Shown here piece by piece: positions 12,182-15,270 of a DNA stretch of 64,000 bases. The notes below the pieces were generated by a model. The model was not told where the DNA came from and did not search any database. It worked only from the letters and a program-made list of their open reading frames with translations. Numbering within the stretch: the stretch's first letter is position 1; each line of letters starts with the position of its first letter. The position numbers and the translations under genes were made by a program. This DNA comes from Escherichia coli (GTDB taxonomy: Bacteria > Pseudomonadota > Gammaproteobacteria > Enterobacterales > Enterobacteriaceae): the NCBI RefSeq assembly GCF_044324785.1, contig NZ_CP172127.1. One strand, written 5' to 3'.

Positions 12182-13555
12182 TTATTTTAATAACCGCACC
12201 CGGCACGTTTTTCCTTTAATCTTCCCGCCCTGCAACTGTTTCCATGCTTTATGAGCAACAGCCTGACGCACCGCGACATAGACATGCGCCGGATGCACGG
12301 CGATTTTGCCAATATCTGCGCCATCAAGCCCGATATCTCCTGTCAGCGCACCTAATACATCACCCGGGCGCATTTTGGCTTTTTTCCCGCCATCGATACA
12401 TAACGTTGCCATTTCGGCTTCCAGCGGCACAATGGAACTATTAACTGGCGGCGTTTGCCAGTTAAGTTTTATCTGCAACATGTCAGAAATGATATTGGCC
12501 CGCTGTGCTTCTTCCGGGGCACAGAAACTGATCGCCAGACCGCTATTTCCTGCACGCGCTGTGCGACCGATGCGATGTACATGAACTTCAGGATCCCACG
12601 CCAGCTCAAAGTTCACCACCAGCTCAAGCGATTTAATATCCAGACCTCGCGCAGCAACATCAGTCGCAACCAGTACACGGGCGCTACCGTTAGCAAAACG
12701 TACCAGGGTCTGATCGCGATCGCGTTGCTCCAGATCGCCGTGTAACGACAATGCACTTTGCCCTACTTCATTCAGCGCGTCGCAGACAGCCTGGCAATCT
12801 TTTTTGGTATTGCAAAACACCACACAAGAGGATGGCTGATGCAAGCTTAATAACCGTTGCAACAGAGGAATTTTGCCTTTACTGGATGTCTCATAAAATT
12901 GTTGTTCAATGGGTGGCAAAGCATCTGTTGAGTCAATTTCAATCGCCAAAGGATCGCGTTGCACTCGTCCGCTGATTGCGGCGATGGCTTCCGGCCAGGT
13001 TGCCGAAAACAGAAGCGTCTGTCGAGATGCAGGCGCAAAACGGATGACATCATCAATGGCATCGCTAAATCCCATATCCAGCATGCGGTCGGCCTCATCC
13101 ATCACCAAAGTATTCAGCGCATCCAGTGATACCGTGCCTTTTTGCAAGTGATCCAGCAAACGACCCGGCGTTGCCACGATAATATGCGGCGCATGTTGCA
13201 ACGAATCACGCTGCAAACCGAACGGTTGACCACCGCACAACGTCAAAATTTTGGTATTTGGCAGAAAACGCGCCAACCGACGCAATTCACCTGCCACCTG
13301 ATCCGCCAGTTCACGCGTAGGACACAGCACTAAAGCCTGGGTTTGAAATAGCGACGCATCAATTTGCTGTAACAAGCCGAGGCCAAAAGCCGCCGTTTTG
13401 CCGCTGCCGGTTTTCGCCTGCACGCGAACATCTTTTCCGGCAAGGATCGCCGGAAGCGCGGCGGCCTGCACCGGCGTCATGGTTAAATAACCCAACTCAT
13501 TAAGGTTCGTGAGTTGGGCGGGAGGCAAAACATTCAGGGTAGAAAAAGCGGTCAC
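12182..13555 (-). CDS. dbpA: ATP-dependent DEAD-box RNA helicase DbpA (457 aa)
   Basis: 457 aa; Walker A AKTGSGKT, DEAD box VMDEADRML, SAT motif. Confidence 0.95.
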   Translation of the reverse strand: MTAFSTLNVLPPAQLTNLNELGYLTMTPVQAAALPAILAGKDVRVQAKTGSGKTAAFGLGLLQQIDASLFQTQALVLCPTRELADQVAGELRRLARFLPNTKILTLCGGQPFGLQRDSLQHAPHIIVATPGRLLDHLQKGTVSLDALNTLVMDEADRMLDMGFSDAIDDVIRFAPASRQTLLFSATWPEAIAAISGRVQRDPLAIEIDSTDALPPIEQQFYETSSKGKIPLLQRLLSLHQPSSCVVFCNTKKDCQAVCDALNEVGQSALSLHGDLEQRDRDQTLVRFANGSARVLVATDVAARGLDIKSLELVVNFELAWDPEVHVHRIGRTARAGNSGLAISFCAPEEAQRANIISDMLQIKLNWQTPPVNSSIVPLEAEMATLCIDGGKKAKMRPGDVLGALTGDIGLDGADIGKIAVHPAHVYVAVRQAVAHKAWKQLQGGKIKGKTCRVRLLK

Positions 13556-13584
13556 AATCTATTCTCGTGGTCATCGACGCAAAG

Positions 13585-13758
13585 TTAGCAGGCGCGTATC
13601 CTCGCAGATCTACGCTCACGATGCGACAATTTAATCGGTTCTTCATCGGGTGGTGGGTCAGGCATGGGTTGCGGGCGAGGGATTGGATCGGGCACAGGAA
13701 CAGGATCGCCAGGAATCGGTTCAGGGACAGGAATTTGCAAATAAATAAGTGTCGTCAT
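13585..13758 (-). CDS. candidate small proline-rich protein (57 aa), immediately upstream of dbpA
   Basis: ATG at 13758 preceded by GGAGGG 4 nt upstream; translation MTTLIYLQIPVPEPIPGDPVPVPDPIPRPQPMPDPPPDEEPIKLSHRERRSARIRAC; stop 29 nt before dbpA ATG; below the 60-aa cut-off of the ORF track. Confidence 0.4.
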   Translation of the reverse strand: MTTLIYLQIPVPEPIPGDPVPVPDPIPRPQPMPDPPPDEEPIKLSHRERRSARIRAC

Positions 13759-13815
13759 ATTTCCCTCCGGTCATTGGGTGGACTCTTAAAGGGTAGACGC
13801 TGATAAATAACAGGC

Positions 13816-13937
13816 AAAAAAAAGCCGACTCATCAAAGTCGGCGTCGTACGAATCAATTGTGCTATGCAGTAATTCAAAAAAGGAAGTAAGACAATATGG
13901 AGCGCAACGCCCATCGCTTGACGTTGCATTCACCTGC
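13816..13937 (-). ncRNA. fnrS: FnrS small RNA (about 122 nt), FNR-activated anaerobic sRNA
   Basis: Minus-strand GCAGGTGAATGCAACGTCAAGCGATGGGCGTTGCGCTCC...GCCGACTTTGATGAGTCGGC plus U8 matches FnrS as I recall it. Confidence 0.85.
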
Positions 13938-14032: not shown

Positions 14033-15037
<1,005 letters not shown>

Positions 15038-15270
15038 TTATTTTGTAGTCTAGCCTTCTGGCCCTGTTACGCAACATCTCATCACCCCATTACCCTGAAA
15101 TGATTAATAAAATTCTGTCTAAATTGAATACAAAAAGCAAAATGCTTTTCCATATACAAACCGTGTGAAGTGTTAAATAGCGTCTATCATTATCAGAATT
15201 ATCTGATCATATGACGTGGCTTTTTTGCGATCGGATAGCAACAAAAATTGATAAAAATAATGGGATCTCA

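Follow-up and report, generated by a model that had tools for sequence, protein, structure and literature searches.

The 57-codon minus-strand open reading frame (ORF) between fnrS and dbpA in the window, the whole 64-kb stretch of Escherichia coli DNA analysed here, is ynaL, a true protein-coding gene with an existing annotation and a product that has been detected experimentally. Its finding is therefore a rediscovery that adds no new gene, because the annotation and validation of ynaL date back to 2018. What is new here is the peptide-level selection on the proline-rich core of YnaL, the persistence of the family beyond its linkage to dbpA and the DNA/RNA-level conservation seen in E. coli-type genes. 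These comparative data narrow the options for YnaL, as selection acts on the Pro-X-Pro core at the peptide level and this core survives without an adjacent dbpA, and about 50 nt upstream of dbpA are frozen at the nucleotide level across more than 10 genera. We give about an even chance to a joint reading in which ynaL is a free-standing small-protein gene whose Pro-X-Pro peptide acts in trans, with a probable additional effect in cis on dbpA where the two genes are adjacent. The gene and its neighbours are arranged as follows.

13585..13758, minus strand: coding sequence of ynaL (57 codons and the TAA stop) for the proline-rich small protein YnaL
13763..13768, minus strand: Shine-Dalgarno sequence GGAGGG, 4 nt 5' of the ynaL ATG, read from the sequence
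13820..13937, minus strand: fnrS sRNA gene (Rfam RF01796, 134.8 bits), the invariant upstream neighbour of ynaL
13824-13843 plus T-run, minus strand: intrinsic terminator of fnrS, a strong hairpin followed by an 8-T run
12182..13555, minus strand: dbpA, ATP-dependent RNA helicase DbpA, 457 aa, GTG start, from ORF and annotation

The ynaL ATG lies at 13758-13756 and the TAA at 13587-13585 (sequence and ORF list), leaving a gap of 29 nt to the dbpA GTG (13555). The product, MTTLIYLQIPVPEPIPGDPVPVPDPIPRPQPMPDPPPDEEPIKLSHRERRSARIRAC, contains 16 Pro and 8 Asp/Glu. All of this agrees exactly with the initial annotation, which had described a Pro-rich ORF with a GGAGGG ribosome-binding site located between FnrS and dbpA; its statement that the ORF is unlisted is wrong for current annotation, in which the interval already holds ynaL, in K-12 MG1655 as elsewhere. 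The 57 aa are identical to WP_001296046.1 (RefSeq 'proline-rich small protein YnaL'), including the K-12 MG1655 protein, and the RefSeq ynaL annotation is present in all of the matches listed from 5392 matching E. coli genomes. Compared with the known YnaL of K-12, nothing differs: sequence, position between fnrS and dbpA and strand arrangement are the same. Furthermore, Pfam PF23677 ('Protein YnaL-like') matches the product over its full length (E=2.2e-40; residues 1-57 on model positions 1-57) and is carried by all YnaL homologues.

YnaL was detected in 2018 by chromosomal SPA tagging followed by immunoblot, and the sequence printed for it in that study is the product of the window ORF (VanOrsdel et al., PMC6001520). 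The same work reported a signal for ynaL in tetracycline-arrested ribosome profiling and included YnaL in a group of 13 small proteins for which ribosome profiling was positive too, most of them present at high levels according to the authors (PMC6001520). Of the two roles first proposed for the ORF, a small protein or an EF-P-dependent leader peptide of dbpA, the former is borne out by these data, and the ribosome occupancy on which the proposal had been made to depend is on record. Detection relied on a C-terminal tag, which could stabilise a normally short-lived peptide. The YnaL literature gives detection only; the stand-alone homologues and nucleotide-invariant blocks described below are not reported there, and no ynaL entry was found in the supplements of ribosome-profiling and EF-P profiling papers. 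By length alone the ORF is unremarkable, as 48 ORFs of 30 aa or longer overlap the same 4-kb stretch. ynaL stands above chance because its frame, start and Shine-Dalgarno sequence are kept in every related locus examined, the last as (C/T)GGAGG(G) 5' of the ATG in nearly all of them, and because the ratio pN/pS is far below 1, so that the conservation anticipated for a real gene is indeed found.

Within YnaL, this selection falls on the following part of the peptide.

13645..13707, minus strand: acidic Pro-X-Pro core, DPVPVPDPIPRPQPMPDPPPD (codons 18-38), where selection on the peptide is seen

The core follows the consensus DPVPxPDPIPxPQPxPDP, or in its extended form DPVPxPDPIPxPQPxPDPP(P), and ends in DPPPD (residues 34-38), the PPP codons of which lie at 13648-13656. 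Over 18 core codons, pN/pS was 0.10-0.17 at a pS of 0.56-1.0 relative to Phytobacter, Erwinia, Mixta, Scandinavium, Kosakonia and Klebsiella, and these values hold even against loci without an adjacent dbpA. Third codon positions in the core vary freely and synonymous sites are close to saturated, yet the residues are conserved; this pattern indicates that selection acts on the peptide and not on the nucleotides. Across the last 40 codons, pN/pS was 0.02-0.25 with a pS close to that of dbpA. The conserved part extends over some 40 residues at the C-terminal end, close to the length of one exit tunnel, and the N-terminus varies. Of 120 cluster representatives, 106 have PPP and five carry PSP or PIP in its place, a replacement also seen in E. 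albertii and the C. youngae group.

The tract from position 11 to 41 is dominated by D/E/P (22 of 31 residues; RNA C/G ratio 2.2). AlphaFold2 assigned a pLDDT of ~91 to residues 21-40 with no secondary structure, and a tract of ~25 residues is predicted to form an extended polyproline-type rod without a globular fold. In this alternation of X-Pro with acidic residues and its predicted extended, rigid shape, YnaL resembles the proline-rich spacer of TonB (PF16031) and other X-Pro rods. The compositional matches to TonB are weak (NCBIfam TonB E=2.9e-4, 20.8 bits against a cut-off of 315; Pfam TonB_N E=0.75) and there is no significant homology; unlike TonB, YnaL is a 57-aa stand-alone peptide without membrane anchor or C-terminal domain, and its core is conserved residue by residue, beyond composition. 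No transmembrane segment was found in YnaL, no relative among the solved structures of the PDB and no plasmid-borne copy of the gene. The family is narrow, with 36 matches among 1.84 billion representatives.

The genomic context of ynaL is constant on one side and variable on the other. The order zntB - fnrS - ynaL was found in all loci examined from Enterobacteriaceae and Erwiniaceae, with fnrS directly 5' of ynaL and about 60-100 nt between the end of the former and the start of the latter, whereas the gene on the 3' side differs between loci. The distance from ynaL to a downstream dbpA is 14-32 nt in Escherichia, Salmonella, Citrobacter, Enterobacter, Klebsiella and relatives; the ynaL stop moves in Klebsiella and Raoultella, and an early stop in Kosakonia cowanii-type loci leaves 62 nt to dbpA. 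The family also reaches Erwinia, Mixta, Phytobacter and Scandinavium, where ynaL again follows fnrS and dbpA is not directly downstream, its absence being judged by adjacency to ynaL at the locus only. A hairpin and a ttcA gene in convergent orientation lie 3' of ynaL in Phytobacter (L037), an Enterobacter sp. (L040), Mixta (L042) and Scandinavium (L043); the Erwinia locus (L038) has ttcA-dbpA further on, parted from ynaL by a T-run-bearing hairpin and a promoter match of 10/12. The obligatory place upstream of a regulated gene that marks a leader peptide is therefore seen in the window and in E. coli-type loci and not across the family. As ynaL is kept without an adjacent dbpA, a dedicated leader peptide for dbpA is not its general role.

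At the 3' end of ynaL the mode of conservation is different, and two blocks stand out.

13622..13638, minus strand: block 1, CCGATTAAATTGTCGCA, codons 41-46, P-I-K-L-S-H
13591..13611, minus strand: block 2, AGATCTGCGAGGATACGCGCC, codons 50-56, R-S-A-R-I-R-A, with the rare codons AGA, AGG and ATA

Block 1 is invariant at the nucleotide level in all dbpA-linked loci, save for T/A at a Leu/Met codon and for its last base (A, or G in Kosakonia-type loci), and its distance to the dbpA start is constant at 81-84 nt. The Enterobacter sp. locus L040, in which dbpA is not adjacent, encodes a similar peptide, VPYKLSRV, with different codons. Block 2 has an 18-nt core, TCTG(C/A)GAGGATACGCGCC, that is shared by all dbpA-linked loci examined, which span more than 10 genera, and is variable at the C/A position only; of the block's codons, the first alone changes (AGA, or GGA/AAT). 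It is absent where dbpA is not adjacent, and it is intact but untranslated, outside the ORF, in the Kosakonia cowanii-type loci L039 and L041, which identifies it as a DNA/RNA-level element tied to dbpA. In 25 loci, no nucleotide changes at all in ynaL codons 39, 41-43, 45 and 51-55, and hardly any in codons 50 and 56; by comparison, only 5 of 120 amino-acid-invariant degenerate codons in dbpA are nucleotide-invariant, with a longest run of 1. Taken together, these data show that blocks 1 and 2, within the last 19 codons of ynaL, belong to the upstream region of dbpA rather than to the peptide, and the bipartite nucleotide-invariant element that they form was previously undescribed.

Several identities were considered for this element. 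Rfam returned no match for the invariant blocks, FnrS alone passing the gathering threshold, and a permissive scan of 13480-13830 gave one chance-level match (E=7.3). Block 2 occurs in a single copy within the window, where the only further match to block 1 was a chance-level one with 3 mismatches. A putative hairpin in block 2, AUCU-G(C/A)GA-GGAU, is formed by 20 of 25 sequences compared with 11.2 expected (mean z -0.28), a weak enrichment. A possible CsrA-type GGA hairpin fits the block only loosely, with the Kosakonia GAG variant breaking the GCG/CGC stem, and the literature search gave no relevant link between CsrA and E. coli dbpA. The idea that the blocks imitate or are complementary to 23S rRNA (the DbpA target region h92) or 16S rRNA was rejected, as local alignment scores did not exceed shuffle means, and so was pairing of block 2 with dbpA codons 36-38 (AUCCUUGC), a site that is not conserved at the nucleotide level. 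No sigma-70 promoter for dbpA inside ynaL was matched by the promoter scan, and sigma-54, sigma-E and sigma-32 readings, assessed by eye, do not hold, either for reasons of spacing or because Enterobacter has ATC in place of TGC. Overlapping genes were likewise discarded: the ATG of a +1-frame ORF is missing in Salmonella and others and the spacing between the genes differs by 1-3 nt among loci, and the frame of an antisense ORF is not conserved across the Pro tract.

Two further features bear on how ynaL and dbpA could be expressed.

13790..13817, minus strand: candidate ynaL promoter, inferred only, with -35 TTGCCT (13817-13812), 16-nt spacer and -10 TACCCT (13795-13790)
13553..13567, minus strand: dbpA translation start region, with a weak Shine-Dalgarno-like CGAGA, a 7-nt gap and UUGUG including the GUG start

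The candidate promoter sits just 3' of the fnrS terminator. Its CTAC(C/G)CT is invariant in the alignments and its 16-nt spacing is found in most loci, being broken in two Citrobacter loci; the Erwinia equivalent, TTGCCA-17-TATGCT, passes the promoter scan, in which the E. coli candidate fell below the threshold and gave no match. At the other end, CGAGA ... TTGTGACCGCTTTTTC is conserved at the dbpA start. In the window sequence, the two ends of this start region can pair into a 5-bp mini-hairpin over the dbpA start codon (-3.7 kcal/mol, z -3.15); its five pairs show one-sided changes only, and nothing ties the hairpin to ynaL. Scanning of the window sequence gave no match to a promoter or terminator between ynaL and dbpA, and a review of DEAD-box helicases contains nothing on dbpA promoters or expression.

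Under the joint reading, ynaL behaves as a free-standing gene whose ribosome-binding site is strong and which probably has a weak promoter of its own, the candidate located after the fnrS terminator. The acidic Pro-X-Pro tract would be the functional module, most likely a trans-acting peptide that binds a putative conserved cellular partner, a role suggested by its conservation and by the gene standing alone in some genomes. In E. coli-type genomes, ribosomes on ynaL would pass DPPPD, where EF-P is expected to assist, then cross the two blocks and terminate just before the weak dbpA GUG, so that translation of ynaL probably also sets dbpA expression in cis. The tandem arrangement, the weak dbpA start, DPPPD and the invariant element at the ynaL 3' end together make such a secondary effect possible. 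Hence, of the EF-P-dependent dbpA leader proposed by the initial annotation, the general role is not supported, given homologues that persist without an adjacent dbpA, a PPP that is not universal and the failure to find a conserved RNA switch, and a secondary cis effect in E. coli-type genomes may stand. DbpA is a 50S-assembly helicase. We tentatively raise, as a minor possibility, that the bipartite element of the dbpA leader and translation through DPPPD form a device tuning DbpA synthesis to translation performance (EF-P, peptidyl-transferase centre, Mg2+). If the element and ynaL translation do control DbpA, this would be a new case of a ribosome-biogenesis factor regulated by translation quality.

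A first alternative, which we consider unlikely, is that ynaL is mainly a cis-acting leader or arrest peptide for dbpA, in which EF-P-dependent stalling at PPP or MgtL-like intrinsic ribosome destabilisation (IRD) sets dbpA translation or Rho-dependent polarity and the released peptide is idle. It would account for the 14-32-nt ynaL-dbpA tandem of E. coli-type genomes with neither promoter nor terminator in between, for the weak dbpA GUG within its mini-hairpin, for the exit-tunnel length of the conserved C-terminal part and for the invariant nucleotides at the junction of the two genes. DPPPD is predicted to be a strong EF-P motif, D before PPP being among the strong EF-P stalling contexts (PMC4176338), and EF-P dependence of YnaL is plausible from its sequence. 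The D/E/P content of positions 11-41 resembles IRD sequences (bioRxiv 10.1101/2021.02.02.429294), and the RNA of the Pro tract is C-rich and G-poor, as are rut sites (PMC5021804). Against this, the core is under purifying selection even in loci that lack a co-directional gene after ynaL, some lineages have PSP or PIP in place of PPP, and tagged full-length YnaL was seen by immunoblot (PMC6001520). The effect of a D/E/P cluster in IRD is maximal at the N-terminus and is counteracted by ~30 preceding residues (bioRxiv 10.1101/2021.02.02.429294); the YnaL cluster starts at residue 13 and its densest part, 33-41, comes after ~32 residues. No conserved alternative RNA structure linking ynaL to the dbpA start was found (folding z about 0), RNAalifold returning only short invariant hairpins with compensatory changes in 0 of 19 pairs and a covariation term of +0.04.

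Like MgtL and MgtP, the leaders of mgtA and mgtCBR, YnaL is encoded by a short D/E/P-rich ORF with alternating prolines (EPDP...PLPRRR in MgtL, PDPIPRP...DPPPDEEP in YnaL) that in E. coli lies directly 5' of another gene, and both types of sequence are expected to be hard to translate. In contrast, MgtL has 17 aa with its D/E/P motif right after the initiator Met, whereas the strongest motif of YnaL comes after ~32 residues; the mechanism of MgtL relies on defined alternative leader structures and on Rho, and structures of that kind were not found for ynaL; and YnaL persists without a downstream gene. SecM carries GIRAGP. With SecM, TnaC, the RAPP/RGPP peptides and PepNL, ynaL shares its place as an upstream ORF whose conserved C-proximal sequence ends near the next start, and the 'IRA' within its RIRAC loosely resembles the SecM motif. 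Unlike these arrest peptides, YnaL contains no RAPP, RGPP or RAGP (motif set from PMC12992588) and no SecM-type motif, and no switch sequestering a ribosome-binding site was found. Instead of a peptide-conserved arrest motif it has a C-terminal tail, RSARIRAC, that is dispensable in K. cowanii and constrained as nucleotides, which explains its conservation, and a stop codon that moves between genera.

A second alternative, which we regard as quite improbable, links YnaL to its invariant neighbours, either as a regulator of the CorA-family zinc transporter ZntB or as an anaerobic read-through product from the FNR-dependent fnrS promoter. Modulation of transporters by small proteins has precedents in MgtS and MntS. 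The zntB - fnrS - ynaL order, kept at every locus while the downstream gene changes, and the short distance from fnrS to ynaL are in line with this alternative; however, the conserved order is weak evidence because synteny is generally conserved in these families. Moreover, YnaL lacks a transmembrane segment, and the strong fnrS terminator is followed by a promoter-like element. Pairing of FnrS with the ynaL-dbpA mRNA was no better than that of shuffled sequences (best local duplex -15.1 kcal/mol compared with a shuffle mean of -18.05) and was rejected as an explanation of the invariant blocks as well. Also against this alternative, the dbpA mRNA of Shigella is lowered in anaerobiosis (log2 -1.86), when fnrS is induced (PMC4229854).

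That the ORF is conserved solely through overlapping non-coding functions (dbpA leader, promoter), with the peptide a by-product of translation, would fit the nucleotide constraint on blocks 1 and 2 and could stand only for the last 19 codons; it is highly implausible for ynaL as a whole, being contradicted for the core by pN/pS, with its amino acids kept at near-saturated synonymous sites, and by a conserved start codon and Shine-Dalgarno sequence and a detected protein.

The open reading frame (ORF) between FnrS and dbpA was found in the window as the initial annotation had described it, with a proline-rich product (MTTLIYLQIPVPEPIPGDPVPVPDPIPRPQPMPDPPPDEEPIKLSHRERRSARIRAC, translated from the minus strand) and 29 nt between its TAA and the dbpA GTG:

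12182..13555, minus strand: dbpA, ORF for a 457-aa DEAD-box helicase, GTG start
13585..13758, minus strand: ynaL, ORF of 57 codons, ATG at 13758, TAA at 13587-13585
13768-13763, minus strand: Shine-Dalgarno sequence GGAGGG, 4 nt 5' of the ynaL ATG
13820..13937, minus strand, as ynaL: FnrS (Rfam, 134.8 bits)

Its length is by itself uninformative, since the same 4-kb stretch is overlapped by 48 ORFs of 30 aa or more, and the case for the ORF rests on comparative evidence. The gene, initially taken to be unlisted, is already known as ynaL: the translation is identical to that of WP_001296046.1, located between zntB and dbpA in the K-12 MG1655 annotation, and matches Pfam PF23677 ‘Protein YnaL-like' (E=2.2e-40). 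A 701-nt query over the region matched 5392 of 5426 complete E. coli genomes at ≥95% identity; among the matches listed, every row labels the ORF in RefSeq as ‘ynaL: proline-rich small protein YnaL' or ‘protein YnaL'. The same 57-aa sequence was printed as ynaL, with fnrS and dbpA as neighbours, by VanOrsdel et al. 2018 (PMC6001520), who detected YnaL by chromosomal SPA tagging and immunoblot and remarked that ynaL is possibly in an operon with dbpA; YnaL was also positive in tetracycline-arrested ribosome profiling (PMC6001520). Our literature search found no further paper on YnaL. The suggestion of a small protein was thus upheld, and K-12 annotation and reported ribosome profiling, two of the checks that the initial annotation proposed, both agree with it.

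Homologues in PF23677 occur in Escherichia, Citrobacter, Salmonella, Enterobacter, Leclercia, Lelliottia, Kosakonia, Klebsiella, Raoultella, Pseudocitrobacter and others; the first 15–20 residues are variable and the remainder is highly conserved (...DPVPxPDPIPRPQPMPDPPPDEEPIK(L/M)SH...RSARIRAC). The reading frame is kept in the related loci examined; in comparisons of the window with 26 loci, pN/pS was 0.02–0.25 over the last 40 codons, with a synonymous divergence there similar to that of the first 150 dbpA codons. AlphaFold2 predicted no secondary structure, with pLDDT of ~91 at residues 21–40 only and pTM of 0.23, a model more in line with an extended polyproline-type rod than with a fold; no relatives were found in the PDB or on plasmids. 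The length of the Pro-X-Pro tract varies in frame among alleles: E. coli E69 (locus L009) carries an 11-codon in-frame deletion giving 46 aa, and Salmonella protein cluster P0053, present on 181 contigs, a 10-residue duplication giving 70 aa. Occasional frameshifted alleles also exist (E. coli variants P0110 and P0023).

Codon-by-codon comparison of 25 loci showed that amino acids are conserved in codons 18–38, the Pro-X-Pro tract, with third positions free and all four Pro codons used. Amino acids are also conserved at codons 39, 41–43 and 45, where third positions are identical in all 25 loci, and at codons 50–56, of which 51–55 are identical in all 25 and 50 and 56 nearly so. Two nucleotide-invariant stretches lie in this 3' end:

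13622-13638, minus strand: block 1, GAA..CCG ATT AAA.TG TCG
13591-13611, minus strand: block 2, AGA TCT GCG AGG ATA CGC GCC

Both are essentially identical at all nucleotides, synonymous sites included, in more than ten genera. The exceptions are, in block 2, the first codon and a C/A position and, in block 1, the Leu/Met codon and the last base; the copies in Klebsiella, Raoultella, Kosakonia and Leclercia differ only in one codon and one C/A position. In dbpA, taken as control, nucleotide invariance was limited to 5 of the 120 degenerate codons whose amino acid is invariant (longest run, 1), and only four of its first 80 codons were invariant across 33 loci. Block 1 lies 81–84 nt from the dbpA start (21 loci). 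Three of the last eight ynaL codons (13597-13611, minus strand) are AGA, AGG and ATA, which the long ORFs of the window use least (1.6, 0.8 and 4.5 per thousand). All dbpA-linked loci have AGG and ATA, and most have AGA, replaced by GGA or AAT in a few. These rare codons are probably a consequence of nucleotide-level constraint but could also slow decoding. The blocks are the one feature here for which we found no description, and they merit closer functional scrutiny.

When 1.84 billion representative proteins were searched with a profile, only 36 hits came back, with divergent members from Erwinia, Mixta, Phytobacter, Scandinavium and Kosakonia cowanii among them. The homologous loci have zntB and fnrS upstream of ynaL throughout and differ on the 3' side:

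Group a, Phytobacter (L037), Enterobacter sp. (L040), Mixta (L042), Scandinavium (L043): GC-rich hairpin, then convergent ttcA; dbpA not adjacent
Group b, Erwinia (L038): hairpin with T-run, 10/12 promoter match, ttcA, then dbpA
Group c, K. cowanii type (L039, L041): dbpA next; ynaL ends after ...EEPIK(L/M)SR, at 49 aa

Peptides of groups a and b retain the acidic Pro-X-Pro core, most with different ends, e.g. ...DPPPH(R/M), and the 18-codon core gave pN/pS of 0.10–0.17 against such distant loci (pS 0.56–1.0). Both blocks are absent from all loci without adjacent dbpA, the Erwinia dbpA upstream region included; in group c, block 2 (AGATCTGAGAGGATACGCGCC) is intact outside the ynaL ORF, 35 nt 5' of the dbpA start. 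Together, the core pN/pS and these loci show that the core is selected as peptide, independently of dbpA, which makes ynaL a gene in its own right. Block 2 (and, by association, the invariance of block 1) belongs to the dbpA upstream region at the DNA or RNA level, and the ‘RSARIRAC' tail is largely a by-product of block 2. The Erwinia-like metagenome contig L038 carries a called 63-aa homologue at 2501-2692, whose real start is probably the internal ATG at codon 13, preceded by AAGGAGG, because a promoter-like TTGCCA-17-TATGCT overlaps the called start.

With roughly even confidence, we read YnaL as a free-standing small protein that would act in trans on a cellular partner through its conserved, acidic Pro-X-Pro rod, with a secondary role in E. 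coli-type genomes, where ynaL would be the first cistron of ynaL-dbpA and its translation would pass over the invariant element of the dbpA leader. That ynaL is instead purely a leader peptide for dbpA appears unlikely. The sequence is indeed of a hard-to-translate kind: PPP after D ranks with the strong EF-P-dependent contexts (PMC4176338), ribosomes can be destabilised by D/E/P-rich tracts, MgtL being an example (bioRxiv 10.1101/2021.02.02.429294), and polyproline stalls can uncouple transcription from translation, letting Rho act on C-rich RNA (PMC5021804), the C/G ratio of codons 11–41 being 2.2. This sequence type makes EF-P-dependent synthesis of YnaL likely, and the dependence could spill over to dbpA in E. 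coli. However, ynaL persists without a downstream gene in distant loci, PPP is replaced by PSP or PIP in several lineages, the C-terminal tail is not conserved as a peptide motif, no RNA switch was found between ynaL and dbpA, and tagged full-length YnaL was seen by immunoblot (PMC6001520); moreover, ~32 residues precede the densest D/E/P cluster, reportedly enough to suppress intrinsic ribosome destabilisation (bioRxiv 10.1101/2021.02.02.429294). The initial proposal of an EF-P-dependent dbpA leader fits the sequence type, but the features that would mark a dedicated leader were not found. A link of YnaL to ZntB or FnrS, whose genes accompany ynaL in all three groups, is doubtful; pairing of the blocks with FnrS tested negative. 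That the ORF is not a functional peptide is scarcely credible.

Several candidate roles for the invariant element were examined. Rfam scans gave no RNA family match for the blocks, their consensus structure showed no covariation (0 of 19 pairs compensatory), and folding stability of the ynaL-dbpA region was not unusual. Tests were likewise negative for mimicry of, or pairing with, 23S or 16S rRNA, for pairing with early dbpA codons and for a sigma-70 promoter (scan without match). Block 2 can form a hairpin with an AUCU/GGAU stem around a G(C/A)GA loop in 20 of 25 distinct sequences, against 11.2 expected with shuffled spacers, although mean z reaches only −0.28 and the 25 sequences share ancestry; its sole variable base is the free position of the GNRA-type loop, and the variable spacer pairs with the invariant CGCGCC. 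A second hairpin can form over the dbpA GUG:

13553-13567, minus strand: 5-bp hairpin, C(A/G)CGA-N7-UUGUG (CACGA-N7-UUGUG in the window)

It would pair the weak Shine-Dalgarno region with the GUG start (z −3.15 versus shuffles of the window sequence) and is kept in relatives with one-sided changes only, A-U to G-U.

The ynaL-dbpA gap contains no promoter or terminator match, and the dbpA GTG follows a weak CGAGA. Upstream of ynaL lies a candidate promoter:

13790-13817, minus strand: TTGCCT, 16 nt, then CTACCCT, candidate −35/−10 pair

Here the last part of the fnrS terminator T-run supplies TTGCCT, and the CTAC(C/G)CT heptamer is invariant among aligned loci; the promoter scan accepted the corresponding Erwinia site, TTGCCA-17-TATGCT, but not the E. 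coli one. We infer that this site is a weak ynaL promoter and that ynaL and dbpA share a transcript in E. coli-type genomes. In Shigella flexneri RNA-seq, dbpA mRNA was lower in anaerobiosis (log2 −1.86) and a canonical FNR site was assigned to the ‘dbpA promoter region' (PMC4229854); this site is probably that of the fnrS promoter, between zntB and ynaL. Further upstream, a 15-codon ORF (15030-15077, minus strand), ‘protein YnaN' in K-12 RefSeq, stops 13 nt 5' of the zntB start, a tiny upstream ORF before this CorA-family transporter gene. In E. coli STEC388 (NZ_CP041425.1), the fnrS-ynaL-dbpA match falls in two pieces flanking an IS1A element, so IS1 has inserted here in at least one strain.
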